Assembly (NCBI GenBank): GCA_052033955.1
Contig: JBPOJD010000003.1
Span: forward strand, 23,128-87,127
DNA length: 64,000 bases
Source of the DNA: Candidatus Hydrogenedentota bacterium
GTDB lineage: Bacteria; Hydrogenedentota; Hydrogenedentia; Hydrogenedentales; SLHB01
Reading direction: 5' to 3'
Shown: positions 2,408-62,818 of the stretch, in pieces
Position numbering within the stretch: position 1 is the stretch's first letter
Layout of the letters: every line of letters starts with the position of its first letter
Position numbers and translations under genes: made by a program
The notes under the pieces: generated by a model
Database searches by the model: none
Told to the model about the DNA's origin: nothing
The model's input: only the letters and a program-made list of their open reading frames with translations

Positions 2408-2433
2408 CACTGGCCAGGAGTAACGACTGAACC

Positions 2434-15865: not shown

Positions 15866-16165
15866 CGTGTCTGCGGAGTTTCCTGTGCCGTACCGCCCGA
15901 TAGGACCCGCTGCACGCTGCCGCACCGTGCCGGGCCAAGCCGCCGAAACTATAGCACACGCCATGAACCGTGCGGTAGCCGGCGTGGAGCCGGACAACCT
16001 GATCCTGAGCACCGTGACATCCCCCGCGCCCCGCCTCTCGTCTCTCGGAAAAGCCGTGCCGCGCGGTGGTCGTTTGCGCGGCCCGACCATGCTTGGTATC
16101 CTGCGGTGCATCAGTAGTTGTGCCGTCAATATCAAGGACGTACGCGCGTCCAGTGGAGGGATCGC

Positions 16166-24044: not shown

Positions 24045-24259
24045 GCGGCACCTCCTTCCGAGACAGATTTCGCCTCGGAAAGATAGGTGCGCCCCGCAAC
24101 CCATTCGTCGCGTTTACACGCTCAGTATAGCACGGAACAGCCGTTGGAGGAGCAATATTTCTGCCGGAACGGGACTCAAAGCAATGCCGGCGGCCCGCTT
24201 GTCGCGGACCGCCGGCACGTTCCGTCGCGTTGCGCCCCCTTGGACGCCAAGGTGTTGTC

Positions 24260-28693: not shown

Positions 28694-29068
28694 CTGTGAG
28701 ACTCCTTTGTAACGTACCGCTGCATGTGCAATCCAAAGAGTCTCAACTCGAGAGGCGCGGGCGAGGGCCAGTCCCCATGCGCCTCCCGGGACCGAGGGGC
28801 GCCCTTAGAGGGAACTCTGGGGGCGCCTGACGACGTCACGGAGGCGGGTGCGGATGTCGCGCCACGCCGTGAGCGTTGGTGTCAGACCGGTAGAGGAGGC
28901 GAACGCGCCAGCGGGTGTCTGCGCTGCAATAGCGACGCTCTCAGGGGACAGACGTGTCATCAGAGATTGAGGCTCCTTTTGCGTGCATCCTCGGAACAGC
29001 GTGCTGGCGAATCGAGTCTCAAAGCGGCGAGACGGAAGCCGTCGAAAGCCACACCGTCTTGCGACCTT

Positions 29069-30625: not shown

Positions 30626-31496
30626 TGGCCTCTCCTTTCGCCTCGATGCGTTCCGGGGAACGGCGCATCAGCCGGCGCATCAGCTGTCCCTTGATGGCCG
30701 ACATGACAGGCATCCAGCAATACGCGCCCTTGACCTTGAGCCGGAACTCCCACAGGAGGTCCGAGGGGTCCACGCGGACGCGTCCAATGACGAACTCGTC
30801 CTGGGTCATGCGGGCCGGCCGGGCATTGCCGGTGAACACCCGCCGGTAACCGGCGTTCCGCACCATGTCGACCAGGGATGCATTGTGGCGGCCGTAGGGG
30901 AACACAAAGGTGTCGATCTCGCGCCCCAGCGCCTGCTCGAGGCATTCCCGGGAGGCCTCGAGCTCCAGACGGGCCTCCTGTTCGTTGAGCAGACACATGT
31001 TCCGGTGGGAGACGCCGTGGGACCCGATGGCGACCAGGCCGGCGGGCAGTTGCCGCAGGTCGCTCGCCGAGGCCACGGTCTCCGAGGTGTCGCGCGAGTG
31101 GAGCGCCTGGCGCCAGTTGGCCGGTCCGCCCATCTTGCCCGAGGGCACAAAGACCGAACAGGGAAGGCCTCGCGAGACAATTTCGGGTATGGCCCCGGTG
31201 ACGGCGCAGGTGAACGCGTCGTCGAAGGTGAGAGCGGCGTAGCGGCTTCCAGGCGCGAGTCCGTGCCGTTCACCGGCCGGGACCACGCGGGCCATGCGCT
31301 GCAACTCGTCCAACTGGCGGCGGAACGCGGGCATCTCATCGGCGCGGACCGAGTGATAACACACCACCATGCAGGTGGGAGGCGTTTCCTGTCCGGCGGC
31401 GCGCCGGATCCGCTGCCAGGCCTGATGCAGGATCCAGTACACCTGGCTGACGGCGAGTGTGAGGATGCGGTGGAGGATGGCGGTTACCGTGTGCAT
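30603..31496 (-). CDS. Polysaccharide deacetylase (NodB homology domain, CE4)
   Basis: ALTFDDAFTCAVTGAIPEIVSRGLPCSVFVPSG (the TFDD motif) ... IGSHGVSHRNM (His motif) ... FVFPYGRHNASLV. The ATG at 31496 is chosen; the upstream 150 codons of the ORF are Arg-rich, overlap the next gene and are rejected. Confidence 0.75.
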   Translation of the reverse strand: MHTVTAILHRILTLAVSQVYWILHQAWQRIRRAAGQETPPTCMVVCYHSVRADEMPAFRRQLDELQRMARVVPAGERHGLAPGSRYAALTFDDAFTCAVTGAIPEIVSRGLPCSVFVPSGKMGGPANWRQALHSRDTSETVASASDLRQLPAGLVAIGSHGVSHRNMCLLNEQEARLELEASRECLEQALGREIDTFVFPYGRHNASLVDMVRNAGYRRVFTGNARPARMTQDEFVIGRVRVDPSDLLWEFRLKVKGAYCWMPVMSAIKGQLMRRLMRRSPERIEAKGEASVHFTRP

Positions 31497-31954
31497 TGCG
31501 CGGCCTCTGCGCCGTGCCGGCGCGTGTCGTCGGGAAAGGCGGTGACGGTGTGCGTAAGGGTGCCGCGCAGCGCAGCGCCACGCGCCTGAAACGCGGCCTC
31601 GATGGCGCGCACCACGTGACGCGCATGCTCCGTGGGGGTGCCGGTCAGGATGACCCCGATGGCGGATCCGCTGTTCTGCCATCCGGCCACGTCGCTCAGG
31701 CGCACGCGGGTGCGCACCGCGCCGGCGAGCAGGCCGAGGAGCCGGTCCGGATCCGCGCCGTCCCAGGCATCGACGGTAAACGACACGAGCACACACGGCG
31801 TGCCGGTGCGGTCCGCGAGGGCACGTTGGCGCAGCAACGCGTCGCGAAAGGCACGTTCGTCGAGCAGCGCAGGCGTGTCCAAGGGCGGCGGGGATTCCGC
31901 GCGGGTCCCACTGGGCCACCTTTCCGGTGTCTTCTGCTGTCGCCACCTTGTCAT
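31484..31954 (-). CDS. Small protein with a degenerate GGDEF-like (diguanylate-cyclase-fold) domain
   Basis: CVLVSFTVDAWDGADPDRLLGLLAGAVRTRVRLSDVAGWQNSGSAIGVILTGTPTEHARHVVRAIEAAF aligns to the GGDEF-domain core, with GWQNS in place of GGDEF. Start at ATG 31954; upstream ORF part rejected. Confidence 0.45.
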   Translation of the reverse strand: MTRWRQQKTPERWPSGTRAESPPPLDTPALLDERAFRDALLRQRALADRTGTPCVLVSFTVDAWDGADPDRLLGLLAGAVRTRVRLSDVAGWQNSGSAIGVILTGTPTEHARHVVRAIEAAFQARGAALRGTLTHTVTAFPDDTRRHGAEAAQCTR

Positions 31955-32461: not shown

Positions 32462-33637
32462 CTATGCCGCCAGAAGCCGTTCTACCAGATTCGTGTACAC
32501 CCTCTTGTGTTCGTTCCATCTGTATTTCGCTCCAAATCCCATCCAGGCCGCCTGGCCGAGTTCCAAACGCTTGTCCGGGTGAGCGTAGAGATCCTCCACG
32601 GCCCCGGCGAACGACGTGGGGTCGTCTGCGTCGAAGAACTGAACCATGGCGGCATCGAAATAGCGCATGATGGTCTGTGTCCTGGGTACCACACAGGGAA
32701 TCCCCATCTGCACGTACTCGAGCAGCTTGGTGGGAAGCATCAATTCGGTCGCGCTCGAGATGCGCATCGGGATGACGCCGACATCGACGTCCGCCAGGCG
32801 ATACGGAATCTCTTCGACGGGCACGAACCCGTCGCTGAACGCGACCCGGGACGCAACGCCGAGGTCCGCGGCCCGCCGCGCCAGCTCCTCGCGGGCTTCC
32901 CCGTCCCCGATGATGCGCAGCTCGATGTCCGGAATGCGTTCGCACAGCACCGGCATGGCCTCGACGGCGATGTCCAGGCCAAGACGGTGCGCGAGCGTGC
33001 CGTGATAGGCCAGGACAAAGGGCGCGCCCGGACGCCGGGTTCGCGGTTCGCGCGGCGGCGCGAAGATCCGCTCGTCCGGAAGATTGAACAATACCGAGAT
33101 CTTGTTGCGCGGGATGCCGCGTTGGGACAGCACGTCCTTGAGGCGCTCCTCGACGGTGAGCACCTGTGTGGCAAAGCGCCCGGCCATCCACTCTTGGGAC
33201 GCAAGCAGCCGGATCACCCAGTGGCGCGCGCCGACATGAAACTTCTCCATGTAAAGCTCGGGCATCGGGTCATGGACGTCGTGGATAACGGGAACACCCA
33301 GGGCGCGGGGAAGCCACGCGGCGAGGACGAGGAAATCGGGCATGTTGCTGACGTGAATCAGGCGGTACCGGAGCGGGTGGGCCGTCATGTGCGCGCAGAT
33401 CTGAAGGAAGAAGAGGAGATAGTCCGCCAGATAGGCCGCGACCGAATCCGGTTTGTGCGACCGCGCCCGGGTCCGGCGCACGTCCACCCCCATGATCGTC
33501 TCGCGCCGGGGTTGGCCCGGCTGGCCGCGGGCGATGAAGACCACGCGGTGGCCTTCCTCGACCAGCGCCTCGGCCTCGCGCCGGACGCGGGGATCGCGGC
33601 TGTAGTTCGTGTATGCGGCCATGAGCACGGTTGCCAT
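32462..33637 (-). CDS. Glycosyltransferase family 4
   Basis: MATVLMAAYTNYSRDPRVRREAEALVEEGHRVVFI ... C-terminal GT4 signature MLPTKLLEYVQMGIPCVVPRTQTI (EX7E). ATG at 33637. Confidence 0.8.
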   Translation of the reverse strand: MATVLMAAYTNYSRDPRVRREAEALVEEGHRVVFIARGQPGQPRRETIMGVDVRRTRARSHKPDSVAAYLADYLLFFLQICAHMTAHPLRYRLIHVSNMPDFLVLAAWLPRALGVPVIHDVHDPMPELYMEKFHVGARHWVIRLLASQEWMAGRFATQVLTVEERLKDVLSQRGIPRNKISVLFNLPDERIFAPPREPRTRRPGAPFVLAYHGTLAHRLGLDIAVEAMPVLCERIPDIELRIIGDGEAREELARRAADLGVASRVAFSDGFVPVEEIPYRLADVDVGVIPMRISSATELMLPTKLLEYVQMGIPCVVPRTQTIMRYFDAAMVQFFDADDPTSFAGAVEDLYAHPDKRLELGQAAWMGFGAKYRWNEHKRVYTNLVERLLAA

Positions 33638-33641
33638 TGCC

Positions 33642-35012
33642 TTACCCGTCCAGGTCGCGCGGCGCGACCGAGGCGTGCGCGTCGCATCCCCCCGCCATCG
33701 CGGCGGACCAGTCCTTGGGGATGCCGAGCGTCCTGCGGCCGGTGCCCAAGTACAAGAGGCCCGCGCGTGCCGCAGCGAGGGGGTCCCAGAAGTCCCTTCC
33801 ATCAACGACTACGCTGATCCCACCGGCCGCCCACGCAGCGAAGTCCGGCGAGGCAAATTCCTCGTGCGCGGTGTTCAGAAACACGACGTCCGCGCGGTCC
33901 CGGTCCACGTCCGCCGGACGGAACCCCGCGCAGAGAATCTCGTGACTGCTGTAATGCGGATCCTGGAGCGTGACGATGGCGCCGTGCCGGATCAGTTCAT
34001 CGCGAAGCGCGTAGGCGCTGCTGAAGATGTCGACCTTGACGCCGGGGCGGAAGGCGAGTCCGAGGATATGCGCCCGTTTGTTCGCGAGCGGCTGCCACGC
34101 CTGGGCCACACGCGCCACGTGCCGCGCAGGCTGGGCGTCGTTGACCGCCCGCGCGGTCTCCGCGAGCCGCTGTCCGACCCCGAGGCGCCGCGCGGCCCGG
34201 GTCAGAAAGTAGGGGTACACCGGAGTGCAGTGACCGCCGACGCCGATTCCCGGCGCGAGCAGATGGGCCTCGCCGCTGGTGTTGGCGGCGCGCCGGACTA
34301 CCTCGAAATCCACGCCAACGGCCTCGGCGAACTCGGCCAGTTCGTTGGCGAGCGCGATGCTGACGTCGCGGTAGAGCATGTCGGCAAGCTTCGCCATCTC
34401 AGCGGCCTCGAGGGTCCGCACGTCGTGCACGGGCGCGCCCAGATACAGACTGTAGAAGGCGACGGCCTTGGCGCAGGAGGCCTGATCATAGCCCCCGACG
34501 ACCTTGGGCGTCTTCCGCAGGCGTTCCAGCACGAGGTTGGCCTTGACCCGTTCGGGGCTGAATGCCACGTGAAAATCGCGTCCGGCCTTGAGGCCACTGT
34601 GGTCTTCAAGCACCGGGACCAGTTCGTGACGGGTGCCGCCGACCGATACCGTCGTTTCGAAAATGACGAGGGCGCCCGGCTGGAGCCCCTCGCCGACCCG
34701 TGCCGCCGCGTCCTTGAGAATGGCGTAGTCGATGTCGCGCTCATTCGTGAGGTGGGCCGGGACGATGACAATGATGACGTCCGCATCCCGCGCGGCCTGC
34801 GTCGTGTCGAGGGTCGCCCGGAGCCGGCCTTCCTGGTGGACTTCATCGAGGAGGGCGGCGAGGCCGGGCTCCTCGTACGGGCACAAGCCCTCGTTGATCT
34901 GGCGGACGAGGGCGGGGTTGATGTCGCAGACCGTGGCTGCGGCGCCGTTTCCAGCGAGCACACACGCCAGCGGCAACCCCATGCGGCCGGCGCCCACGAC
35001 CATCGCGTTCAT
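33642..35012 (-). CDS. Nucleotide-sugar 6-dehydrogenase (WbpA/WecC-like UDP-N-acetylhexosamine dehydrogenase)
   Basis: MNAMVVGAGRMGLPLACVLA (Rossmann GxGxxG) ... GGHCTPVYPYFL (catalytic Cys region of the UDPG/MGDP dehydrogenase family). Its ATG overlaps the upstream aminotransferase stop (ATGA). Confidence 0.75.
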   Translation of the reverse strand: MNAMVVGAGRMGLPLACVLAGNGAAATVCDINPALVRQINEGLCPYEEPGLAALLDEVHQEGRLRATLDTTQAARDADVIIVIVPAHLTNERDIDYAILKDAAARVGEGLQPGALVIFETTVSVGGTRHELVPVLEDHSGLKAGRDFHVAFSPERVKANLVLERLRKTPKVVGGYDQASCAKAVAFYSLYLGAPVHDVRTLEAAEMAKLADMLYRDVSIALANELAEFAEAVGVDFEVVRRAANTSGEAHLLAPGIGVGGHCTPVYPYFLTRAARRLGVGQRLAETARAVNDAQPARHVARVAQAWQPLANKRAHILGLAFRPGVKVDIFSSAYALRDELIRHGAIVTLQDPHYSSHEILCAGFRPADVDRDRADVVFLNTAHEEFASPDFAAWAAGGISVVVDGRDFWDPLAAARAGLLYLGTGRRTLGIPKDWSAAMAGGCDAHASVAPRDLDG

Positions 35013-36139
35013 GCGCAGCGCTCCTTCAGGGTTGATACCGCCGCCCGAAGCCCGTCGCAGACGAAGCCGATCTGTTCATCGGTGATCTCGGCGAACATCG
35101 GCAGCGACAGCAGGTGCAGGGCCTGCTGTTCGGCCACGGGGAAATCGCCTTCGCCATGGCCGCGCGCGGCGTAGGCCTTCTGCAGGTGCAGCGGGATGGG
35201 GTAATGCAGGCCGGTGGCGATGCCCTGCCCGGCGAGCGCGGCCTGGACCTCGTCCCGGTTGGGCACCTGCACCACGAAGAGATGCCAGACGGGCCGGCAG
35301 TGCGCCGGCACCGTCGGCAAGACCACCCCATCCACATGCGCCAGCAGCTCCATGTAGCGCCGGGCGGCCCTGCGCCGGGCCTCCGTCCAATCCGGCAGGC
35401 AGCGGAGCTTCACGCGCAGTGCCGCCGCCTGAAGGGCGTCACAGCGGCCATTGTGTCCTTCGATGTCGTGATAGTACTTCTTGACCTGGCCGTGGTCGCG
35501 CAGCATGCGCACCCGGTCGGCGAGGTCGGTGTCGTTGGTGACGACGGCCCCGGCCTCCCCGCAGGCGCCGAGGTTCTTGCCCGGATAGAACGAGAATCCG
35601 GCCGCGACGCCCATCGTTCCGGTGCGACGGCCTTTGTACTCGGCGAGATGGGCCTGTGCGGCATCTTCGACGACCCACAGCCCATGCTCGGCGGCTACGG
35701 CGCCGATGGCGTCCATGTCGGCGGGCTGTCCATAGAGGTGGACCGGAACGATGCCCTTGGTGCGGGGCGTGATGACTTGTTCGATCTGCTGCACGTCCAG
35801 GTTGTACGTGTCCGGGCGGACATCGATGAAGACGGGTGTTCCGCCGGCCAGGCTCACGGCCTCGCTCGTGGCGATGAAGGTGTTGGCCGGTACGATGACC
35901 TCGTCGCCGGGGCGGAGTCCCAGGGCCTTGAAGATGAAGAGGAGCGCGTCCGTCCCATTGCTGACCGTCACGCAGTGACGCGCGTCGCATGCCGCGGCGA
36001 ACTCTTCTTCGAAGGCAGCAACGTGCGCCCCGCCGATGAACCCCGCCGTGTCAAGAATGTCGCTCCACAGGGTCAAGATCTCTTGCTTGACGAGCCGGTG
36101 CTGCGCTCTCAGATCCAGGAAGGGGACGTTCGTCTGCAT
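35009..36139 (-). CDS. DegT/DnrJ/EryC1/StrS-family PLP-dependent sugar aminotransferase (WbpE/PglE-like)
   Basis: MQTNVPFLDLRAQHRLVKQEILTLWSDILDTAGFIGGAHVAAFEEEFAAACDARHCVTVSNGTDAL ... SFYPGKNLGACGEAGAVVTND is the classic DegT family signature. Confidence 0.85.
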   Translation of the reverse strand: MQTNVPFLDLRAQHRLVKQEILTLWSDILDTAGFIGGAHVAAFEEEFAAACDARHCVTVSNGTDALLFIFKALGLRPGDEVIVPANTFIATSEAVSLAGGTPVFIDVRPDTYNLDVQQIEQVITPRTKGIVPVHLYGQPADMDAIGAVAAEHGLWVVEDAAQAHLAEYKGRRTGTMGVAAGFSFYPGKNLGACGEAGAVVTNDTDLADRVRMLRDHGQVKKYYHDIEGHNGRCDALQAAALRVKLRCLPDWTEARRRAARRYMELLAHVDGVVLPTVPAHCRPVWHLFVVQVPNRDEVQAALAGQGIATGLHYPIPLHLQKAYAARGHGEGDFPVAEQQALHLLSLPMFAEITDEQIGFVCDGLRAAVSTLKERCA

Positions 36140-36620
36140 GGGATGCCGCCTTTCTCATGAAGCGGGCGGGATTGCCCGCCCAGATCTCGCCATCAGGGAT
36201 GGACTTGGTCACGACACTGCCCGCGCCGACGACGGCGCCCGCACCGATGCGTACGCCACAGAGAACCGTGACGCTCGAACCGAGTGAGGCCCCGTCGCCG
36301 ACATGCGTTGGGATAACAGCCCAATCCGCCTCGGTCTGAAGGGAACCGCCGGGGTTGGTCGCCCGGGGGTACCGGTCATTGATGAAGGTGACGTTGTGGC
36401 CGACAAACACCCCGTCGCCAATGGTCACGCCCTCGCAGATAAAGGTGTGACTGGATACCTTGCAGTCCTTGCCGATAACGGCGTTTTTCTGGATCTCGAC
36501 GAAGCAGCCGATCCGCGAGCGGTCGCCGATCCGGCAGCCGTAGAGGTTGACGAATCCAAAGATCCGCACGTCTTCTCCCATCACCACGTCCGGCGCGATG
36601 CGCGAATAGGATTCCATCAT
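36051..36620 (-). CDS. Hexapeptide-repeat (left-handed beta-helix) sugar N-acetyltransferase (WbpD/PglD-like)
   Basis: MMESYSRIAPDVVMGEDVRIFGFVNLYGCRIGDRSRIGCFVEIQKNAVIGKDCKVSSHTFICEGVTIGDGVFVGHNVTFIND is made of hexapeptide repeats. Shine-Dalgarno AAAGGA 6 nt upstream of the ATG at 36620. The C-terminal 30 aa overlap the aminotransferase start by 88 nt. Confidence 0.7.
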   Translation of the reverse strand: MMESYSRIAPDVVMGEDVRIFGFVNLYGCRIGDRSRIGCFVEIQKNAVIGKDCKVSSHTFICEGVTIGDGVFVGHNVTFINDRYPRATNPGGSLQTEADWAVIPTHVGDGASLGSSVTVLCGVRIGAGAVVGAGSVVTKSIPDGEIWAGNPARFMRKAASHADERPLPGSESAAPARQARDLDPVERHS

Positions 36621-36858
36621 GCGTTGTCCTTTCGAATGGATGGGGCTCCGAACCGCCGGCGCCCATGCCGCGATGCGAGCAACGCATGTGCCAACGCGTC
36701 GCCGCCCCGCAAGACTGCCGCGGATATGCGGAAATCTGCGGGCGCGCCGGTGATCAACGGGAACACCAGCGCTGTGATGTGGCGATTGCATGCGCGATCT
36801 GGCGCGCAACCCTTGGCTGGATTCGGCATGTCCGCAGTGGGCCGCGGCATGGGTGAGG

Positions 36859-37752
36859 TCACTGGACGCGCCATGGCCGCCACCCCCCCGACACCGAGCC
36901 CCAGAGCTTGCGGTGCTGTTCCTCGCGGATAAACCGCGCCAGATCCGGCGGCACGCGGTAGTCGCCATGGCCCGCGACGCCCCAGAGATACCCGAGCGTC
37001 CGCACGAGCGCGCCGACAACGTAGGGGCGCTCGATGCTGCGGTACGCCGCGCGCGCCAGCACGAACCACGGGCTCCATCCGAAGACGCCCTGCGTGACAC
37101 CTTGGCGGAAACGCGCGCGCAGCAGGCTGCCCGCGGCCTGGCCGGTTACGCCGTGATGCAGCACGGGCAATTCGGGAAACGAGCGTGACTCCCATCCCTT
37201 CCACCGGGCGACATGGAGTGCCAGCGCATCTTCGGAGCCCAGCCGCAACGGCACGTAGCCGCCGATGTCCTCGTAGCACGCCCGTCGGAACATCTGGACC
37301 GCGCCCCCGACGCTGTCGAGGCTCGCATGCTTGGGATGGGCCATGCCGTCGTAGAAGTCGAAGGTGACGCCGCCGCCGATGCCGAGGCGGGGGTTGGCGT
37401 CGAAGCGCGCAAGCAGCCGCTCGAAGTAGTCGGGGCCAAACGTAATGTCCGCGTCGAGATTGCCCACGTACGCGTAGTCCTCGCCGGCCAACAGTTCCAG
37501 GCCGGCGTTGATGGCATGCACCTTCGAACCGAAGTCCCGGGTCCCTTGACCATCGCGGCGGAGGTAGCGTACGAACGGATAGTGTTCCGCGCAGGCCTTT
37601 GCGATTTCGTCGGTGCCGTCCGTGGACCCGTCGCTGACGATTACCCATCCAAGCGGGCGGCGGGTCTGCGAGACGACCGCGTCGATCGTGAGTTCGAGGG
37701 TTGCTGCGGCGTCGCGCGCGGGGGTGATCAATACGTAGTCCTGCCCGTTCAT
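36859..37752 (-). CDS. Glycosyltransferase family 2
   Basis: MNGQDYVLITPARDAAATLELTIDAVVSQTRRPLGWVIVSDGSTDGTDEIA is a GT-A fold N-terminus with a DxD-type region. The ATG at 37752 overlaps the upstream gene's stop. The long Arg-rich N-terminal ORF extension is rejected. Confidence 0.75.
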   Translation of the reverse strand: MNGQDYVLITPARDAAATLELTIDAVVSQTRRPLGWVIVSDGSTDGTDEIAKACAEHYPFVRYLRRDGQGTRDFGSKVHAINAGLELLAGEDYAYVGNLDADITFGPDYFERLLARFDANPRLGIGGGVTFDFYDGMAHPKHASLDSVGGAVQMFRRACYEDIGGYVPLRLGSEDALALHVARWKGWESRSFPELPVLHHGVTGQAAGSLLRARFRQGVTQGVFGWSPWFVLARAAYRSIERPYVVGALVRTLGYLWGVAGHGDYRVPPDLARFIREEQHRKLWGSVSGGWRPWRVQ

Positions 37753-39155
37753 GCCAGTGCCTCCCCTTCTGAGACGCCACGTCCGAGGTGAACTGGCGTC
37801 TGCCGGGGCACGGGCGCCTGTTCTGGTTGCGCCAAGACCGCCGGAAGCGCGCAACAGAGCGCCCAGAAGCACCAGAAGGCGACGGAGGTGAAGCCGCGGC
37901 TGCTGGTGATCGCCGTCTCGACGAAGTTCGACAGCAGGCACTGCACCATCACAATGACCACGACCGCCTTCAGGTCGCCGGGCGGAAGGTGCAGAGCTCT
38001 TATCAAGGGCAGCACGAGGATGATCATCCAGACCAGTCCACCCACGAGCCCCATGCCGATCACGGCATTCAGGTAGCCATTGTGGAGCGATGTGCGCGCG
38101 CTGCCCCAGGTCGACTCCATCTGCTTGGTCGAAAAACGTGGGTCGGTCCATACCTCGCCGCCTACCTCGTAGCCGTAGCCGCGAAGCGGGCGCTGCCCGA
38201 TGAGGGCCAGGCTGGGCCCCCAGAACTGTTCGCGCCCGGTGAGATCGGTGATCGTGCGTGTGGCGGCCTGATCGCGCTCGAGACTGGGCACCACCGCCGC
38301 GGACAGAAGCACCAGCGGTACCCCGACGACAACGGCCGTCAGGCTGAAACGAAGGCCCTGTCCCAAGAGGACGTGCCAGAGCAGGACCGCGGCCACGGCA
38401 CACCCGATGGATGACCGGGAGCCTGACAGGAGGAGCAGCCCCCATGCGAGCCCGAACATGGCGCCGAAGAAGGTCTTGCCGAAACCGGCCGAGCGCCGGT
38501 ACCGCCACATGAGCAGCGATATGGCGATCATGCACAGTCCGCCAAGCATGTTGGGGTGGCCCGTGATGCCCTGATACCGGTTCGGAGACTGCCACCACCA
38601 CACCTGGGACGGCGCGAACACCAGTGCCGCCGCGTTGATCACCAGCCCGGCGCATGACAGCACGGTAAGCAGCGCTAAGATGCGCTCGACACCGGACCGC
38701 TCCTGGGCCATCGCATACAAGCCAAGGAGGAAGGCCAGGAAGACGATGGCCTCGGACGCCCGAATGAAAGTAAAAGCGGGATTGATGCTGTACCACGTGG
38801 TGACCAACGCCGCACCAAAGAATGCGCCGGCCATCGTGAAGACCGGCGGCACGGGGAGTTCCTGCCGCGAGCGGACGCGCAGGCAGGCGGCGGCTCCTGC
38901 GAGCCCGGCGACAAGAATGATCGCCATGCGGACGTAGGTGCTGATCTCAGTGGATTCGGCGAACTCGAGAAACTCGTTGAAGCGCAGTTCCTCATTTGAT
39001 GAGGTCAACCAGTGGGCCCACGGGGATATCCACACGAGCCCGGCCATGATCTCGAAGCGGCGCAGCGAGTGCGCGAAGACGACCGCGACAGTCAGCGCGC
39101 CGCACAGTGCCAAAAGGGCGCTCACCACGAGGCCATGTTGCACCAGGAACGTCAT
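37749..39155 (-). CDS. O-antigen ligase/polymerase-like membrane protein (Wzy_C domain)
   Basis: Multi-transmembrane protein whose periplasmic loop carries GSRSSIGCAVAAVLLWHVLL ... HNGYLNAVIGMGLVG, typical of O-antigen ligase/Wzy. ATG at 39155 (MTFLVQHGLVVSALLAL). Confidence 0.7.
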   Translation of the reverse strand: MTFLVQHGLVVSALLALCGALTVAVVFAHSLRRFEIMAGLVWISPWAHWLTSSNEELRFNEFLEFAESTEISTYVRMAIILVAGLAGAAACLRVRSRQELPVPPVFTMAGAFFGAALVTTWYSINPAFTFIRASEAIVFLAFLLGLYAMAQERSGVERILALLTVLSCAGLVINAAALVFAPSQVWWWQSPNRYQGITGHPNMLGGLCMIAISLLMWRYRRSAGFGKTFFGAMFGLAWGLLLLSGSRSSIGCAVAAVLLWHVLLGQGLRFSLTAVVVGVPLVLLSAAVVPSLERDQAATRTITDLTGREQFWGPSLALIGQRPLRGYGYEVGGEVWTDPRFSTKQMESTWGSARTSLHNGYLNAVIGMGLVGGLVWMIILVLPLIRALHLPPGDLKAVVVIVMVQCLLSNFVETAITSSRGFTSVAFWCFWALCCALPAVLAQPEQAPVPRQTPVHLGRGVSEGEALA

Positions 39156-39174
39156 GGCGTGTCCCCGTGTACTG

Positions 39175-40629
39175 TCAGCGATCGGCCCATGCCAACGCTC
39201 CCCGGAGCGCGGTGCGCTCCTGTGCGGTCCAAAAAGGTCCCAGCCAGACCACGGCCGTGCAGGCCGCGAAGAAGGCGCCGATGCCGCCGAGGAACAGGGG
39301 GACGGTGGCGTGGCGCAGCGCGAAGGCCGCCATGAGCAGGGCGCCAAACACGCAGCACAGCAGAAAGAGTCGTCCCCACTCGACATGCTCGACAAGGTTC
39401 AGCCGGCGCATGCCCAGCGCCAGCTCAACGGAGTCAGCGAATAAGGCCGCCGATGTCGAGGCGATGACCGCGCCGTGCCATCCGAAGCGGGGAATCAGCA
39501 CGAGGCTCAGGACCACACAGGCCGCACCGCACGAGGAGTTGAGCGCGGCGAGCACGCTGGTGCGACGCGCGGCGCCCAGCAGCGTCTCGCCGAAGTAATG
39601 AAGGCCCATGAGCGCCTGTCCCGGCAGGAGCCACAGCATCACGATGAAGGCATCGGAGTAGGTTGGGGGCGCGACGAGCGGCAGCAGCAGCCGCGTCCCG
39701 ACTATGATGGCGAAGGAGAAGGTCGTGGTGACCAGCACGAGATAGGTCAGCAGGCGTGCCACATTGCGTTCAATCCCCGGGTTGCCCAGATTACCGTACA
39801 CGTAGGGCTGGAACGCCAGCTGGAACGGCAGAAAGACGCCTATCGCGGTCAGGGTGGCGAACTTGTAGCCGAGCGAGAACACGGCGACCGTGGTCAGGCC
39901 TGCGGAATAGCTGAGGACGTACAGACTTACGCCGTAAATCGTCGATTGCCCCGCGGACGAAATAACGAGCGGGCCGCCAAAACGCAGGAAGACGGGCAGC
40001 AGCGTTCGGGACACGCGGACGCCACGCCGGGGAAAGATGTCCAGCGCGACGATGATGTAGACCATGCAGTACGTCGCGATGTACGCGTACAGCGCGCCGC
40101 GAACGCCGAGGCGGAGCACATACAGCGCGATGATGGTGTTCACGAGGAGGATCAGGCCGCTGCCCAGACCGACGCCGATGAAGCGGCGGGAGAGGTTATG
40201 GGCGCGGTAATACGACATGATCTGGAGGGTGAGCGTCTGGGCGAGCGCCGCGACACAGGTCAGTCCGATCAGGGCGAGCACCGTGTCGGTGTGCAGGATG
40301 ACCCGGAAGAGGTTGGGCAACAGCAGGACGGCGACGCCGGTCACGACGGCGCCGCCCATCAGCACAATGACCGTGCAGGTGCCCAGCAGGTGGCTGATGC
40401 GGCCGGCTTCCTCGCATTCCTTGGTGAATCGCAGCGCGGTCTCGCCCATTCCGACGTTCATCAGAAACAGCATGAAGTGGATGGTGATCTGGAGCGTCGC
40501 CCACATGCCGAAGTCGTCCATGGACAGGCAGTAGGTGTAGACCGGCGTCAACAGCAGCGAGGCGGTCCGCATTCCGATGTTGCCGAGCCCGTACAGCGCG
40601 GCATCTTTGAAGAAACCCGACAGTTTCAT
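39175..40629 (-). CDS. Oligosaccharide flippase (Wzx / polysaccharide biosynthesis protein)
   Basis: MKLSGFFKDAALYGLGNIGMRTASLLLTPVYTYCLSMDDFGMW is a typical PST-family start. About 12-14 transmembrane helices. Its ATG at 40629 overlaps the stop of the upstream oxidoreductase. Confidence 0.75.
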   Translation of the reverse strand: MKLSGFFKDAALYGLGNIGMRTASLLLTPVYTYCLSMDDFGMWATLQITIHFMLFLMNVGMGETALRFTKECEEAGRISHLLGTCTVIVLMGGAVVTGVAVLLLPNLFRVILHTDTVLALIGLTCVAALAQTLTLQIMSYYRAHNLSRRFIGVGLGSGLILLVNTIIALYVLRLGVRGALYAYIATYCMVYIIVALDIFPRRGVRVSRTLLPVFLRFGGPLVISSAGQSTIYGVSLYVLSYSAGLTTVAVFSLGYKFATLTAIGVFLPFQLAFQPYVYGNLGNPGIERNVARLLTYLVLVTTTFSFAIIVGTRLLLPLVAPPTYSDAFIVMLWLLPGQALMGLHYFGETLLGAARRTSVLAALNSSCGAACVVLSLVLIPRFGWHGAVIASTSAALFADSVELALGMRRLNLVEHVEWGRLFLLCCVFGALLMAAFALRHATVPLFLGGIGAFFAACTAVVWLGPFWTAQERTALRGALAWADR

Positions 40630-41807
40630 GCGATATGCCGTCCGGTGTCGCTCGCAACCGGCGCGGCGGCCGGCGCTCCCTTGGACTGAAGGGCCGCATG
40701 GGCGACGTGCGCGATGGAGGAACCATTTACCGGTTCGGGCCTCATGGGGACCGCTGCCGCCGGTTTCATCGCCCAGACGGCGCGGCGCCCATTGGTCGCC
40801 ACCTTGCCGCCGCCGTTCCGGAGGGAGGCGGTCGAGGCCTCGAGCACCCGCACGACGGCCAGCCCGTTGGCGCCGTCGCTCAGGGGGGTCTTGCCTTCGC
40901 GCAGGCACTCGACGAAGTGCTGGCACTCGATCTTGAGCGGTTCCTGCTCGCGGATGTAGGGACAATGCATGTCGCCGTAGTGATACGAGTACTGAAAGTC
41001 GGCGTAGGTATCGTAGTGCGGCGGCACCTCGACGTGTTTGTCGTAGATCTTGATCTTCTCGACGGGTGCGATGTCGTCGTAGACAAGCATCTTACGGGTG
41101 CCGACAAAGGTCATCTCGCGGGTCTTGTTCGGGTCGAGCCAACTGCTCTGGACCATGGCGAGGACGCCCGAGGGGAAGCTCAGCGTCATGTTGGTGACAT
41201 CCTCGATGCCGCGCGCGATACCGGCCTTGCCCTGGCAGGCGACGAACTCGGGGTCTTCGCCGACGACATGGATGATGATGGAGATGTCGTGGGGGGCAAG
41301 ATCCCAGGTGACGTTGATGTCCTTCTGGAAGAGCCCGAGGTTCAACCGGCGCGAGGTGACGTAGAGCAGCGTGCCCAGTTCGCCGGAGTCCACGATTTCC
41401 TTGATGGCGCGGACCGGACTCGAGTACAGGAAGGTGTGGCCGACCATCAGGGTCAGGCCCTTCTTCTGGGCCAGCCCGATCAGGGTGCGGCATTCGGCCG
41501 AGGACGCGGCCATCGGTTTCTCGATGAAGGTGTGTTTCCCGGCGCTCAGTGCCTTCTTTGCCAAGGCGAAGTGGGCCTGCACGGGGGTGACGATGGCCAC
41601 GGCATGGATGTCCGGGTTGCCCGTGACGTCATTGAAGTCCGAGGTGGTGGTGACCTGGGGCCAGAGGCCCTTCATGTGGGCAAGCCGGCTGGGGTTTGCG
41701 TCGCACAGCATCGTCACTTGGCAGTCCGGTGCGGAATTGAAGTTCCGCACCAGGTTTGGGCCCCAGTACCCGCACCCCACGACGGCGACATTGCATGTGG
41801 CGTTCAT
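40626..41807 (-). CDS. Gfo/Idh/MocA-family NAD-dependent oxidoreductase (WbpB-like UDP-sugar 3-dehydrogenase)
   Basis: MNATCNVAVVGCGYWGPNLVRNFNSAPDCQVTMLCDANPSRLAHMKG ... EKPMAASSAECRTLIGLAQKKGLTLMVGHTF is the Gfo/Idh/MocA N-terminal Rossmann fold plus its C-terminal domain. Start at ATG 41807. Confidence 0.8.
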   Translation of the reverse strand: MNATCNVAVVGCGYWGPNLVRNFNSAPDCQVTMLCDANPSRLAHMKGLWPQVTTTSDFNDVTGNPDIHAVAIVTPVQAHFALAKKALSAGKHTFIEKPMAASSAECRTLIGLAQKKGLTLMVGHTFLYSSPVRAIKEIVDSGELGTLLYVTSRRLNLGLFQKDINVTWDLAPHDISIIIHVVGEDPEFVACQGKAGIARGIEDVTNMTLSFPSGVLAMVQSSWLDPNKTREMTFVGTRKMLVYDDIAPVEKIKIYDKHVEVPPHYDTYADFQYSYHYGDMHCPYIREQEPLKIECQHFVECLREGKTPLSDGANGLAVVRVLEASTASLRNGGGKVATNGRRAVWAMKPAAAVPMRPEPVNGSSIAHVAHAALQSKGAPAAAPVASDTGRHIA

Positions 41808-41812
41808 TACAG

Positions 41813-42892
41813 TCACTCCTTTCCGAAGAGAAGATCGTTGAATTGGCTGCCGACCGTCGGCAGCGTCTTGAGCAGTATCCAAAGGTCCGACCACAGCGAA
41901 AACGTGCGGGCGTACCGGATATCCAGCCGGACCATTTCGTGAAAGGTGAGCCGGTTCTTGCCGCTGACCTGCCACAGGCCTGTCATGCCCGGGACGCAGT
42001 CAAAACGCGCGGCGTGCCACGCGGCGTAGGCCTCGACCTCGTAGGGGATGGCGGGCCGCGGGCCGATCAGGCTCATTTCCCCGCAGAGGACATTGAAGAG
42101 CTGCGGGAGTTCATCCAGACAGAGCGAACGCAGCAGGCGCGCGAAGGGGATAAGCTGCGGATCGTACTCGAGCTTGACCATCGGGCGTTGGACGTCGCCG
42201 CGGCACACGCCATTGCCCTGGATGAGTTCGGTGACGTGACGGCGGTGGATTGCCGTGTCGGCGTGCACCCGCATGGTGCGGAATTTCCACATGCGGAACG
42301 GGAATCCGCGGAACCCGACGCGCTCCTGCGAGAATAATACCGGCCCCGGCGACGCGATCTTGACGTAGAGAGCCAGTGCCGCAAAAAGGGGCGCCAGCAG
42401 AATCAGTCCGATCAGCGCGCCGGTGACGTCCATCGCCCGTTTCCAGCGCGGCAGTGGGCGCCCGAAGAGCGCTTCGGCCGGCATGCACGGCGGGGAGTTC
42501 ACTGCGGCGTCCGGCGCCGTCTCGCGGCCCGTTGTCGTGGGATACACGAACATCGAGCACAGGATCCGCGGGACGGGCGTTCCGGCAGGCAGCCGTGTGG
42601 CGGCCGCTTCCGCGAAGGCCGCCTCGATCGATGCCATCACGCTTTGCGCGCCCGCCTGCCGGGCATTGGGGAGCAGGAGGCCGATGGCGTGGTGGCGCGG
42701 GTCCTCCCAGCCGGCGATGTCGCTCTTGCGGTGGCGTGCGGCAACGGTCTCGGCGAGAAGGGTGAGCCACGTCCGTTTGCCGGGACGGGATCCCTCGATG
42801 CGGAACCGCAGGAACGCGAACGGCCGTTCCGATCGGTCGGCGTAGGCGCGATGCTGCACCAGTGCCCGGGCCAGGGCCTCGCTGGACAACAT
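41813..42892 (-). CDS. Polyprenyl-phosphate sugar transferase (bacterial sugar transferase, WbaP/EpsB-like) with an N-terminal degenerate GGDEF-like domain
   Basis: C-terminal LIGLILLAPLFAALALYVKIASPGPVLFSQERVGFRGFPFRMWKFRTM...DELPQLFNVLCGEMSLIGPRP is the Bac_transf domain. The N-terminal region ERPFAFLRFRIEG...KSDIAGWEDPRHHAIGLLLPNARQAGAQSVMASIEAAF resembles GGDEF, with GWEDP in place of GGDEF. Start at ATG 42892 (MLSSEALARAL...). Confidence 0.75.
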   Translation of the reverse strand: MLSSEALARALVQHRAYADRSERPFAFLRFRIEGSRPGKRTWLTLLAETVAARHRKSDIAGWEDPRHHAIGLLLPNARQAGAQSVMASIEAAFAEAAATRLPAGTPVPRILCSMFVYPTTTGRETAPDAAVNSPPCMPAEALFGRPLPRWKRAMDVTGALIGLILLAPLFAALALYVKIASPGPVLFSQERVGFRGFPFRMWKFRTMRVHADTAIHRRHVTELIQGNGVCRGDVQRPMVKLEYDPQLIPFARLLRSLCLDELPQLFNVLCGEMSLIGPRPAIPYEVEAYAAWHAARFDCVPGMTGLWQVSGKNRLTFHEMVRLDIRYARTFSLWSDLWILLKTLPTVGSQFNDLLFGKE

Positions 42893-42958
42893 CCCGGCGC
42901 TGGGGGGCGGGTCAGACGCGCGCTGTGTTCCCCCTGTGCGTGCGTGCGTACCGTTGCC

Positions 42959-43648
42959 GTGTCCTTGCATGGCGTGTTCCTGGCGCTACAGGCGCTGGTA
43001 GAGGAACTCGGGGATGTACTGCCGTTGATTGCTCAGGATGGCCCCGAGAATCCGGCCGTTGTTCGCGACGATCTGTTCCGCCTGGTGTTTGACGGCCTGC
43101 CACCGGGCCCTCTCGGCTTCGACGACCAGCACGACGCCGTCCGCCGCGCCGCACAGAAGCTGAGTGCGCGCGGGCAGCCCGCCGAGGGCCGCATCCACCA
43201 GCACCCAGTCGAACGTTTCGCGCCACTGGGCGCAGAGCCGGTCCACATCGGCGGGGTCGCCCGCCGCGGCGGTCGCCGCATCCACGGCATCCGGGCGTGA
43301 GCCGTTGTTTCCGTTAACAGGCGCTTCCGGCCATGCCGGGTCGTTCTTGTGAAGCCCGTTGCCCATGACGCGCCCACCCACGACGAGCACTCGCTTCTTG
43401 AGGCAGCACTCCGCCGTCCTGGCGACCAAGGTCAGCACAGGCGTCCCGTTCGGCTGCGCGGGCACGGAGACGAAGGCCAGCACGGCGCCGCGTGAACGGT
43501 CGAGCTGTGCATCGATGCGCTTGCATGCCCCAAGGAGGCTCTCGTCAATCTCCGCCAAGGGAAGCGGGGGGACGGCGGCAACCGGGGCGGTCTCGACGGG
43601 TTGTGCGCGGTCTTTACTGGCCTGTTGCAGGGCTTCGTAGATCTTCGT
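42959..43648 (-). CDS. BY-kinase-like (ParA/MinD-fold) protein with a degenerate Walker A motif
   Basis: MTKIYEALQQASKDR ... VLAFVSVPAQPNGTPVLTLVARTAE ... DWVLVDAALGGLPARTQLLCGAADGVVLVVEAERARWQAVKHQAEQIVANNGRILGAILSNQ has the architecture of an EPS tyrosine autokinase C-terminal domain. The Walker A GK(S/T) is replaced by PNGT. Confidence 0.5.
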
Positions 43649-45126
43649 CATGGCTGGCGGGACTCCCATTCCGGCACGCCGGGTTCTTCCGCTGCGAGCA
43701 AACTGTCCGCTGCGTTGTCCGGCATGGACGCCGGGAAGACGATCTCCTGTCCGACGTGGATCACATCCACGTTCTGTATTCCGGGGTTGTGACGCTGCAC
43801 GAATTCGATCATCGTGCCGTTGCAGTACCCATAGATCTCCGTGATCAGGCGTGTGAGGCAGTCTCCTTGGCCCGCGACGCGGCGCAGCTCCGCCGGAGCC
43901 TGAGCCGGAGCCGGAGCGGGCGCGGAGGCGAGGGTAGCCTGTTGGACCGGGGCCTCGACCGGCGGCAGGTCGACGCGCTCCACCGCCGGGGCAATCGCTG
44001 GCGGCCCGGGCGAAACCGGTGCGGCCGCGGGCTCGGGCGCCGTCGTAGCGGCTTGGGTGTCGCCAACATGGGGAACAGAAAGGGGAATCGGGCTGGGGAC
44101 CGCGGCCAGGTGAGTGCTGTCCGGAGCGATCTCGGCGTCCGCCGCATAGGTGCGGGGCAGCACATTTCCGTCATTCGACGACTCGGCGGTCGTGACGAGG
44201 GGGCTTCCAGCCGCATCCAGGCCGGACCGGATCCCCAGGCCCGATAGCAGACCAACAACCAGCACCACGAGGGCGAGGGCCGCGACACTCCGCGTGCGCC
44301 GCGCCGCCGGAACCGGAGCGGCCCCGGAGAGTTCGCGGGCGACCCGTGCGGCGATGCGCGCCGGCACCGGGCGGCGCTGGCTTCCGTACCCGGCGATGAG
44401 GGCGTTGTCGCAGAGGATGTTCAGGGTGCGCGGGATGCCCTTGGCGCGAAGGGTGATCGCGGACAGGGCCCGCAGCGAGAAGACGGGTCCCAGCGCGCCC
44501 GCCTTATCGAGGCGAAAGCGGATGTACTCGGTGCTCTCCCTCGGGGACAGCGGCTGGATCGCCGCCCGCACGGCGATGCGCTGTTTGAGCTGGCGGAGGG
44601 CGTAGAGGTCCAGCTTGTGGTCCAGCTCCGGCTGTCCCACAAGCACGATTTGTAGGAGTTTCTCCTGTTCGGTTTCGAGGTTTGACAGGAGCCGGAGCTT
44701 TTCCAGCGTCTCGACGGGCATGTTCTGTGCCTCGTCGATAAGCAGGACCACATTGCGTCCCTGGGTGAACTCTGCGATGAGCTGCATCTGAAGCCGTTCG
44801 AGCGGACTCGCCAGGCCGTCATCACCGGCAGGGGCCCCCAGTTCGCGAAGCAGCAGGGCCAGGAGGGCGTCGTAGGTGATATCCGGGTCGAAGAGGTAGA
44901 TCGGATGGACGCCGCTGCCTTGGGCCATGCTCAGATAGGCCCGCAGTACCGTCGTCTTGCCCGTGCCGACCTCGCCGGTCACGACGACGAATCCCTTGCG
45001 GGCGTTCACGCCGTATACGACCGAGGCGAAGGCCTCGCGGTGGCTCGGGCTCAGGTAGAGGAACTTCGGATCCGGTGTGATCCGGAACGCCTCCTCGGAG
45101 AGTTGATAGAAGTCCAGGTACATCAC
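43648..45126 (-). CDS. ExeA/GspA-like AAA ATPase (EPS/exosortase-locus secretion ATPase family)
   Basis: MMYLDFYQLSEEAFRITPDPKFLYLSPSHREAFASVVYGVNARKGFVVVTGEVGTGKTTVLRAYL (Walker A) ... LLIDEAQNMPVETLEKLRLLSN (Walker B). Ala/Pro-rich linker, then a C-terminal probable peptidoglycan-binding module. Confidence 0.75.
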   Translation of the reverse strand: MMYLDFYQLSEEAFRITPDPKFLYLSPSHREAFASVVYGVNARKGFVVVTGEVGTGKTTVLRAYLSMAQGSGVHPIYLFDPDITYDALLALLLRELGAPAGDDGLASPLERLQMQLIAEFTQGRNVVLLIDEAQNMPVETLEKLRLLSNLETEQEKLLQIVLVGQPELDHKLDLYALRQLKQRIAVRAAIQPLSPRESTEYIRFRLDKAGALGPVFSLRALSAITLRAKGIPRTLNILCDNALIAGYGSQRRPVPARIAARVARELSGAAPVPAARRTRSVAALALVVLVVGLLSGLGIRSGLDAAGSPLVTTAESSNDGNVLPRTYAADAEIAPDSTHLAAVPSPIPLSVPHVGDTQAATTAPEPAAAPVSPGPPAIAPAVERVDLPPVEAPVQQATLASAPAPAPAQAPAELRRVAGQGDCLTRLITEIYGYCNGTMIEFVQRHNPGIQNVDVIHVGQEIVFPASMPDNAADSLLAAEEPGVPEWESRQP

Positions 45127-47487: not shown

Positions 47488-47586
47488 GTCCAGCGATTCC
47501 TCCACGCTTGCCGTCTGCCGGTTGCGTTGCCGGGTGGGGGGGCTTCCGATTCACCGTCCCGCCCGCGTCGACGCGCGCCGGGCTGT

Positions 47587-49300: not shown

Positions 49301-49582
49301 CTCGACCTCCCCTTCTTTCTCACATGCAGGGTCTTTTTCACTTTTCGCTCCTATATCAAAATACCCGCAACCATCGCCATCGCCTATCGGGACGCGGCGC
49401 ATTATCGGGTCAGGGGAACCCGGATAACGCGAAAGCGGCCGATCAGGTACACTGTGGTGGGGCTCAGACCGCTCGAGCCGTCCAACCACCTTCACGCGCC
49501 GCTCTGAGCCCCCCGAGATGCGGCGCGTTTCCGGCTACAGGCCGGGTGGGAGACCTCCACCGTGTTTCCCGGAGTGAGGCCA

Positions 49583-62742: not shown

Positions 62743-62818
62743 GGCTTGCCGTCTGGGTCCGTATTCTGTAGAGTAATAAGACATGTTACCGATTGCCTTC
62801 AACATGGGAGAAGCGACG

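Follow-up and report, generated by a model that had tools for sequence, protein, structure and literature searches.

The route to the uridine diphosphate (UDP)-activated 2,3-diacetamido-2,3-dideoxy-hexuronic acids UDP-GlcNAc3NAcA and UDP-ManNAc3NAcA is laid out for the Wbp/Wlb systems (PMC10622841), i.e. WbpA, WbpB, WbpE, WbpD and WbpI of Pseudomonas aeruginosa and WlbA-D of Bordetella. The locus considered here (locus B) lies in a stretch of 64,000 nucleotides from a Candidatus Hydrogenedentota bacterium (GCA_052033955.1, contig JBPOJD010000003.1, positions 23,128 to 87,127); this whole stretch is called the window. Locus B encodes the same four superfamilies: a Gfo/Idh/MocA oxidoreductase (GFO), a DegT/DnrJ/EryC1 aminotransferase, a left-handed beta-helix (LbH) N-acetyltransferase, these three being the C-3 trio, and a UDPG_MGDP_dh-type dehydrogenase (DH). 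An earlier note, made from the sequence alone, had read them as a complete WbpA/WbpB/WbpE/WbpD-like set. The logic of C-3 oxidation, amination and acetylation is shared with Wbp/Wlb. In contrast to these systems, GFO is not orthologous to WbpB/WlbA, DH belongs to another clade and has a rewired active site, a WbpI-type 2-epimerase is missing from the window, and the genes form two modules and not one operon block. The pathway type is known; the variant found here is new.

Other described systems share parts of this set. The archaeal enzyme MMP0352 (NCBIfam model NF040723) takes UDP-GlcNAc directly as substrate (bioRxiv 10.1101/2023.03.18.533286), and the glycan of M. maripaludis contains GlcNAc3NAcA (PMC2952790). 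GnnA of Acidithiobacillus, a UDP-GlcNAc 3-dehydrogenase, serves with GnnB the formation of lipid A GlcN3N (PDB 7BVJ/7BVK). QdtB/QdtC and FdtD belong to pathways for 3-acetamido-3,6-dideoxyhexoses activated by deoxythymidine diphosphate (dTDP), which need a 4,6-dehydratase and a 3,4-ketoisomerase. In the pgl cassette (PglC-PglD-PglE-PglF), a small phosphoglycosyl transferase (PGT) stands beside enzymes that build a di-N-acetylated UDP-sugar (di-N-acetylbacillosamine) used as priming sugar. UDP-ManNAc dehydrogenases are known from E. coli (WecC), S. aureus (Cap5O) and P. horikoshii (4R16).

The C-3 trio

Judging from its domains (Pfam GFO_IDH_MocA, 4.7e-26; C-terminal domain, 1.1e-15; PF01408, PF22725, PF02894), its motifs (GxGxxG at 11-16, EKP with Lys97, Asp169-x3-His173, conserved among homologues) and the GFO fold of its predicted structure (pLDDT 79), GFO is a member of the Gfo/Idh/MocA superfamily. 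Its best NCBIfam match is the archaeal UDP-GlcNAc 3-dehydrogenase model NF040723 (160.7 bits), followed by IolG (98.5). The score is far under the equivalog cutoff of that model (450 bits): the MMP0352 family is the closest characterised relative of GFO, yet GFO is not a member of it and, unlike MMP0352, is bacterial and found in a PGT-linked cassette. Sequence matches in PDB include 3c1a (101.8 bits) and GnnA (7bvj, 65.7 bits, partial, 22% identity). In Foldseek comparisons, the highest target-normalised template modelling (TM) scores are those of GnnA (0.84-0.87, rmsd 2.8-3.5 Å) and of the uncharacterised 3c1a (0.86). GnnA is the characterised structure with the best such score and has the reaction on UDP-GlcNAc that is predicted for GFO; unlike GFO, it feeds lipid A acylation and not an N-acetyltransferase or a polysaccharide repeat.

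The WbpB-like identity that the earlier note had assigned to GFO does not hold. With the P. aeruginosa WbpB sequence (identical to PDB 3OA2, 728 bits), BLASTP gives 20 bits and E = 0.089 over the Rossmann region alone. None of the WbpB/WlbA structures 3oa2, 3o9z, 3q2i and 3q2k is among the 39 PDB sequence matches at E <= 1e-10 or the 50 best Foldseek matches, and tblastn of WbpB against all 95 fetched sequences yields marginal, superfamily-level matches only. By these comparisons, GFO is not a WbpB/WlbA orthologue (EC 1.1.1.335) beyond the superfamily level, whether P. aeruginosa WbpB, T. thermophilus WlbA or the WlbA subfamily of B. pertussis and C. violaceum is taken as reference. The family of GFO is very large and conserved (at least 8000 matches; the best are ~60-75% identical and ~340 aa long). 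The C-terminal tail of GFO (residues ~342-393; window 40626-40790, minus strand) is an Ala/Pro-rich extension of ~50 residues, predicted to be disordered (pLDDT <50), that is missing from most homologues.

The WbpE-type and WbpD/WlbB-type identities of the two other enzymes are borne out by similarity and motifs. The aminotransferase (Pfam DegT_DnrJ_EryC1, 1.6e-117) matches the C-3 enzymes QdtB (348 bits), DesV (346) and WbpE (286) in PDB, and C-4 enzymes (perosamine synthase, ArnB) score at most 213 bits; the pyridoxal phosphate Lys188 is found in YPGKN and Asp159 in EDAAQA. The acetyltransferase (Pfam Hexapep, 1.1e-23) matches the FdtD-like 4mzu (79 bits), a Helicobacter enzyme (7s3u, 71) and QdtC (47), and Bordetella WlbB (3mqg) at 70.6 bits (E = 1.6e-18). 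Its residues 79-86, FINDRYPR, correspond to the F-x-N-D-x-Y-P-R loop, which is kept in orthologues.

The top PDB relatives of these two enzymes, QdtB and the FdtD-like 4mzu, belong to dTDP-Qui3NAc/Fuc3NAc pathways. Such a pathway was considered and rejected: tblastn with RffG finds no 4,6-dehydratase in the window, the 3,4-ketoisomerase-type family is absent from Pfam scans of the open reading frames (ORFs) scanned, and a GFO dehydrogenase is encoded instead. Because no 4,6-dehydratase/ketoisomerase (QdtA-type) route is encoded here, GFO is the obvious source of the 3-keto group. That the trio performs C-3 oxidation, transamination and N-acetylation of a nucleotide sugar is a well supported prediction; equally well supported is a product of the 3-acetamido type, probably a 2,3-diacetamido sugar. 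The diacetamido part of the earlier proposal of a 2,3-diacetamido-hexuronic acid thus stands, and its uronic part is not well supported.

Gene neighbourhood of GFO

For this comparison, 80 species-representative genomes were chosen whose GFO orthologues are the closest (53-64% identity; for the most part Verrucomicrobiota, Planctomycetota and Desulfobacterota), and the window proteins were searched in them over ~10 kb on each side of the orthologue. In 68 of 75 informative loci the gene immediately upstream of the GFO orthologue encodes a PGT, and in 54 of 69 the one immediately downstream encodes the acetyltransferase; the aminotransferase is found within 2.5 kb in 24 of 63. An orthologue of the window DH is found in none of the 40 GFO loci with full flanks (at least 9 kb on both sides). 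Eight of these 40 carry some other member of the DH family, with the motifs NPEFxRE and GGSCLPKD and the C-terminal YEGICW, which we take to be AlgD-like GDP-mannose dehydrogenases. The recurrent unit is PGT-GFO-acetyltransferase(-aminotransferase), without a nearby UDP-N-acetylhexosamine (UDP-HexNAc) 6-dehydrogenase, which suggests UDP-GlcNAc as the substrate of the GFO family and its product as the priming sugar. This gene context speaks against UDP-GlcNAcA, the substrate of WbpB/WlbA (with NAD recycled by alpha-ketoglutarate in WbpB-type enzymes), as the substrate of GFO. The window keeps the adjacency of PGT and GFO; genes for a Wzx, a Wzy and a family 2 glycosyltransferase (GT2) are inserted before the acetyltransferase and aminotransferase genes.

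The unit has the same priming-sugar logic as the pgl cassette. It differs from it in that the keto group is predicted at C-3, formed by GFO, and not at C-4, formed by a 4,6-dehydratase of the short-chain dehydrogenase/reductase superfamily; the product in the window would therefore keep its C-6 hydroxyl.

An AlgD-like gene ending in YEGICW lies a few kb from the PGT-GFO-acetyltransferase cassette in the contigs L006, L027, L037, L038, L041, L062, L078, L082 and L084, which suggests mannuronic acid in the polymers of those genomes.

The dehydrogenase and its active site

DH has the three Pfam domains of UDPG_MGDP_dh (N-terminal, 1.6e-34; central, 5e-25; C-terminal, 8.4e-11; PF03721, PF00984, PF03720). 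The sole NCBIfam model that it passes is the generic TIGR03026 (309 bits; cutoff 189.8); none of the named equivalogs (TviB, WecC, archaeal ManNAc dehydrogenase, UDP-glucose dehydrogenase) is reached. The two UDP-ManNAc dehydrogenase models give 190.6 (cutoff 750) and 172.3 bits (cutoff 459), and both the archaeal and the WecC model outscore TuaD and TviB; TviB, the sole UDP-GlcNAc 6-dehydrogenase model that scores, gives a partial match of 110 bits (cutoff 592). PDB matches range from 145 to 179 bits (CalS8, 178.6; 3g79, 166; 4r16, 165.5; Cap5O, 145), and the structures of UDP-glucose and GDP-mannose dehydrogenases give at most 125. The identity with E. coli WecC is 35% over 337 aa. By these scores DH is nearer to UDP-N-acetylhexosamine dehydrogenases than to UDP-glucose dehydrogenases, in keeping with the earlier note, and it falls within a large unnamed sister clade of the UDP-ManNAc dehydrogenases, called here the C-x-P-V-Y clade. 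UDP-ManNAc dehydrogenases are the nearest named clade and share the catalytic Cys and Lys; unlike them, DH is below the model cutoffs, lacks three canonical residues and has no WecB-type epimerase in the eight neighbourhoods with called genes.

In a survey of 229 members of this enzyme family, 18 residues, among them Asn208, Asp264, Thr83 and Lys320, were invariant (S. pyogenes numbering; PMC4794789). Asp264 acts as general base, Lys204 and Asn208 stabilise the substrate, and the near-invariant Tyr10 serves thioester hydrolysis (PMC4794789). The residues of DH were mapped onto this numbering by motif and by alignment with E. coli WecC, canonical members and solved structures. DH retains GxGxxG, Lys208 and Cys262, and 13 of the 18 published invariant residues are preserved. 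At the canonical Tyr10 (the Tyr of GxGYxG) it has Arg10, at Asn208 (four residues past the catalytic Lys) Met212 and at Asp264 (four residues past the catalytic Cys) Tyr266. Thr83 is replaced by Ala86 and Lys320 by Arg322, and the TDDxR motif after the Lys320 position is altered. The earlier note had named two features of the dehydrogenase as refuting its reading. One, grouping with UDP-glucose dehydrogenases, does not apply to DH; the other, a lack of the conserved catalytic residues, formally does.

The replacements are found across the clade. C-x-P-[VI]-Y occurs in 120 of the 120 closest DH homologues and K-x3-M in 119. Among the best 150 representatives at 50% identity, the pairs of residues at the Asn208 and Asp264 positions are (T,Y) in 33, (M,Y) in 30, (G,Y) in 23 and (N,D) in 20; the clade with the Tyr state makes up ~105 of these 150 clusters. 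The clade-wide states (homologues P0121-P0399) are Arg/Lys for Tyr10, Met/Thr/Gly for Asn208, Tyr for Asp264 and Arg for Lys320, and they are coupled. A neighbour-joining tree places WecC and the N/D proteins outside the group with the Tyr state, which is essentially monophyletic. None of ten diverse further members of the clade reaches an NCBIfam equivalog, and solved structures are likewise lacking for the clade. As read from these alignments, the clade contradicts the published invariance of Asn208 and Asp264. That the clade is strongly conserved speaks for an active enzyme whose site has been rewired, and against a local defect or a dead enzyme.

UDP-ManNAc was considered as substrate of DH and is disfavoured, no WecB-type epimerase being found in the window or in the eight DH neighbourhoods with called genes, none of which has an Epimerase_2 gene. 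The check for a WbpI-type 2-epimerase that the earlier note had proposed is likewise negative in the window: Epimerase_2 is absent from the ORFs scanned and tblastn with WecB gives a best E of 0.5. A metagenome scan with the single DH protein found two distant loci at 34% identity.

The dehydrogenase and its glycosyltransferase partner

DH orthologues (63-70% identity) were compared in nine further contigs. One of them (L095), where the context is broken up by transposases and a remnant of a family 4 glycosyltransferase (GT4) is present, was left out of the tally. An orthologue of the window GT4 (56-69% identity) adjoins the DH orthologue in seven contigs (L004, L085, L086, L089, L090, L093, L094); L091 has a divergent GT4. 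The C-3 trio is found within 10 kb of DH in the loci of the window type (L004, L089) and in three independent architectures (L086, L090, L091). No trio lies within this distance in Rhizobacter sp. Root404 (L085) or in two metagenome-assembled genomes (MAGs), one of Rhodospirillales (L093) and one of Burkholderiales (L094), where GT4 is still 56-61% identical. DH and GT4 are a tight pair that is frequently, and not obligatorily, combined with the trio; GT4 probably transfers the product of DH.

The two trio-less MAG loci, both proteobacterial, carry, near the DH-GT4 pair, a bona fide AsnB-type amidotransferase gene (L093, 17835-19694; L094, 17624-19450), and L094 also has a FemAB-like gene (16424-17497). 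The DH clade may be linked with amidation or peptide decoration.

Proposed pathway and alternatives

On the strength of the families assigned, the motifs retained and the neighbourhood patterns of the two units given above, substrates, order of steps and pairing of transferases with sugars may be inferred as follows. Module 1 would consist of PGT, GFO, the aminotransferase and the acetyltransferase (coordinates in Table 1). GFO would oxidise C-3 of a UDP-sugar, most likely UDP-GlcNAc; the aminotransferase would turn the 3-keto group into an amine; the acetyltransferase would acetylate this amine, giving UDP-2,3-diacetamido-2,3-dideoxy-glucose (UDP-GlcNAc3NAc); and PGT would load this sugar onto undecaprenyl phosphate to start the repeat. 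Module 2 would consist of DH, making a second, C6-oxidised sugar from a common UDP-sugar, and GT4, adding this sugar to the growing repeat. One more sugar would come from GT2, with assembly finished by Wzx, Wzy and the export proteins. The manno configuration is not predicted, because no 2-epimerase is found in the window.

The two units, PGT-GFO-LbH-DegT and DH-GT4, travel independently, which speaks against the complete set of the earlier note as one pathway; for the same reason, their presence side by side does not show that DH acts on the sugar of the trio. The whole proposal, in which DH works on another UDP-sugar, is put a little short of an even chance. Several points weigh against it. 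UDP-glucose is conceivable as substrate of the trio, which would then give a 3-acetamido and not a 2,3-diacetamido sugar. The genomes with the GFO cassette could encode a dehydrogenase elsewhere, 10 kb per side being covered. In L090 the genes GFO-LbH-DegT-DH-GT4 are contiguous on one strand, an arrangement that fits one pathway as well as two, and the coupling of the DH and aminotransferase genes in the window fits a single pathway equally. To our knowledge, non-uronic GlcNAc3NAc is rare in described glycans, 2,3-diacetamido sugars being nearly always uronic acids. GlcNAc3NAcA as end product, by whichever order of steps, is kept as a serious possibility, at somewhat less than even.

This end product could be reached in two orders. 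In the archaeal one, the trio makes UDP-GlcNAc3NAc and DH oxidises its C-6, yielding UDP-GlcNAc3NAcA for GT4 or PGT; the uronic acid would then be right, reached by other enzyme lineages and in another sequence of steps than in Wbp. MMP0350-0353 of M. maripaludis belong to the same four families, MMP0352 being clustered with the acetyltransferase, aminotransferase and dehydrogenase (MMP0350/0351/0353). GFO is indeed closest to 3-dehydrogenases acting on UDP-GlcNAc, four independent arrangements place DH next to the trio, one of them the contiguous run of L090, and the DH gene overlaps that of the aminotransferase in the window. The DH-GT4 pair without the trio in three lineages does not fit, since GT4 is still 56-61% identical there, which points to one donor sugar whether or not the trio is present; the loss of the canonical Asn, Asp and Tyr10 does not fit either. 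This order is regarded as unlikely. In the canonical Wbp order, DH acts first, like WbpA, converting UDP-GlcNAc to UDP-GlcNAcA, and the trio then acts on the uronic acid like WbpB/E/D. In its favour, none of the four enzyme classes is lacking or damaged, the aminotransferase matches WbpE and the acetyltransferase WlbB, and the DH loci without trio would be explained by direct use of UDP-GlcNAcA. GFO, however, has no specific similarity to WbpB or, at E <= 1e-10, to WlbA, its orthologues are almost never near a UDP-HexNAc dehydrogenase (0/40 loci, 9-10 kb), and DH gives only the partial TviB match and lacks canonical catalytic residues. The Wbp order is considered improbable.

A further alternative concerns the chemistry of DH and is orthogonal to the question of modules. 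Instead of a standard four-electron oxidation, the clade could stop at the aldehyde, resolve the Cys-thioester by a nucleophile other than water (for example an amine, giving a uronamide), or act at another position or on another substrate. The changes at Tyr10, Asn208, Asp264, Lys320 and TDDxR are coupled, clade-wide and essentially monophyletic, they concern positions reported as invariant and catalytic across 229 members (PMC4794789), and the clade stands outside every NCBIfam equivalog. Retention of Cys262, Lys208, the NAD-binding motif and most invariant residues points the other way; a Tyr-Lys/Arg pair could assume the base function, and the clade is always found in polysaccharide loci beside GT4, as an ordinary supplier of sugar nucleotides would be. 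Departure of DH from the standard reaction is held to be quite unlikely. The broader proposition, that the clade is a large unrecognised catalytic class with a different mechanism, whose product, possibly an aldehyde or a thioester resolved as an amide, passes to a dedicated GT4 that co-evolves with it, is held to be doubtful.

If the modular proposal is right, labelling any combination of GFO, DegT, hexapeptide transferase and UDPG-type dehydrogenase as a Wbp uronic pathway is unsafe, and the PGT-GFO-acetyltransferase(-aminotransferase) cassette, which is widespread in Verrucomicrobiota, Planctomycetota, Desulfobacterota and others, would define UDP-GlcNAc3NAc as a priming sugar, one for which glycan chemistry has hardly any record. 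The DH clade offers a directly testable rewiring of the active site in a well-studied four-electron oxidoreductase. Both affect the prediction of exopolysaccharide composition from metagenomes.

Organization of locus B

The four genes are intact on the minus strand and interleaved with those for Wzx, Wzy, GT2 and GT4, as the earlier note had described and as the ORF check and Pfam confirm (Table 1). The window has a GC content of ~65%, and the third codon positions of the four ORFs are strongly biased to GC, as in genuine genes. The locus is identical in three Logan assemblies (reached via the identical cluster representative P0001), and its gene order is conserved, at 63-75% protein identity, in two JGI metagenome contigs (L004, L089). 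Taken as a whole, it may be described as a Wzx/Wzy-dependent exopolysaccharide locus joining two separable sugar-supply modules, a description given slightly less than equal chances.

Table 1. Genes of locus B and of its distal end in the window.
Product	Coordinates	Strand	Length	Basis and remarks
UDPG_MGDP_dh-type dehydrogenase (DH)	33642-35012	-	456 aa	Pfam, TIGR03026
DegT/DnrJ/EryC1 pyridoxal phosphate-dependent sugar aminotransferase, predicted C-3	35009-36139	-	376 aa	Pfam, PDB matches
LbH N-acetyltransferase, 3-amino-sugar class	36051-36620	-	189 aa	Pfam Hexapep, PDB matches; internal start within ORF 36051-37100
Gfo/Idh/MocA NAD-dependent oxidoreductase (GFO), predicted UDP-sugar 3-dehydrogenase	40626-41807	-	393 aa	Internal start within ORF 40626-41975
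GT4 glycosyltransferase	32462-33637	-	391 aa	Pfam; orthologues adjoin DH orthologues
GT2 glycosyltransferase	36859-37752	-	297 aa	Pfam Glycos_transf_2, 2.9e-19
Wzy-type polymerase	37749-39155	-	468 aa	Pfam Wzy_C, 5.6e-12
Wzx-type flippase	39175-40629	-	484 aa	Polysacc_synt, 4.8e-06 (below gathering score); order kept in L004, L089
Polyprenyl-phosphate phosphoglycosyl transferase (PGT)	41813-42970	-		Bac_transf at residues 177-373, Pfam 8.9e-58
BY-kinase-like protein	42986-43651	-		Chain-length/export group
ATPase, distant XrtA/PEP-CTERM type	43648-45126	-		Chain-length/export group
Chain-length determinant, distant XrtA/PEP-CTERM type	45123-46664	-		Chain-length/export group
Export protein, distant XrtA/PEP-CTERM type	46678-47505	-		Chain-length/export group
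FemAB-like acyltransferase	29480-30667	-		Pfam; distal locus end; also in L089, L001
Polysaccharide deacetylase	30603-31946	-		Pfam; distal locus end; also in L089, L001

The DH gene is translationally coupled to the aminotransferase gene, judging from the ATGA-type overlap of its stop at 35009-35012. The 3′ end of the acetyltransferase gene overlaps the start of the aminotransferase gene by 89 nt; in L004 and L089 the overlap is 38 and 32 nt. A pseudogene or frameshift as cause of the 89-nt overlap was rejected: the acetyltransferase has its full length and L089 shares its tail. The gene caller skipped the acetyltransferase in the identical Logan contig L001 (9286-9792) and called an ORF of 168 aa on the opposite strand.

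PGT has an N-terminal extension of ~175 aa (residues 1-175) without a Pfam match. In L089 this region is a separate ORF of 127 aa upstream of a PGT of 202 aa, and most GFO-linked PGTs elsewhere match only the C-terminal ~200 residues (Bac_transf) of the window PGT.

The chain-length and export genes have XrtA/PEP-CTERM models as best NCBIfam matches, all below the equivalog cutoffs: TIGR03015 for the ATPase (242 bits, cutoff 324), TIGR03007 for the chain-length determinant (133, cutoff 279) and TIGR03027 for the export protein (90, cutoff 180); the FemAB-like protein scores 26 bits (cutoff 260). No exosortase was identified in the 64-kb window. Literature on diacetamido sugars in PEP-CTERM loci, and on GnnA/MMP0352, yielded nothing specific.

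Other features of the window

The earlier note had linked locus B with a second polysaccharide locus of the window (locus A) through a GDP-mannose dehydrogenase and an AsnB-like amidotransferase. These identities stand on weaker ground. For the dehydrogenase of locus A (4467-5888, plus strand), which has the canonical N/D residues, the top-scoring models are those of UDP-glucose dehydrogenases (AglM, 329 bits; TuaD, 260), so that a GDP-mannose dehydrogenase is not supported. The ORF at 16118-18061 (plus strand) has no Pfam match and gives partial matches of 30-35 bits to asparagine-synthase-type models; because this match is weak, partial and without Pfam, amidation is speculative. The same ORF contains a PP-loop-like TAGQDS motif.

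Within locus A, a gene for a heparinase II/III-like lyase (7392-9587, plus strand) adjoins the UDP-glucose-dehydrogenase-like gene, a hint that a polymer of uronic acid may come with a lyase of its own. Genes for giant proteins of the secreted type, which contain Ig-like, HYR, beta-helix and TSP3 repeats, lie between and beside the two polysaccharide loci (19911-24113, minus strand; 24260-28804, minus; 49508-51250, plus; 58957-61827, minus). Similar genes flank the loci of L004 and L089, and these proteins may be cargo or partners of the exopolysaccharide system. The pyruvate dehydrogenase E3 subunit (2431-3858, plus strand) is closest to proteins of Candidatus Hydrogenedentota MAGs (66-72% identity). 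A multihaem c-type cytochrome (c554/MtrC-like) is encoded at 62780-63466 (plus strand), near the right end of the window.

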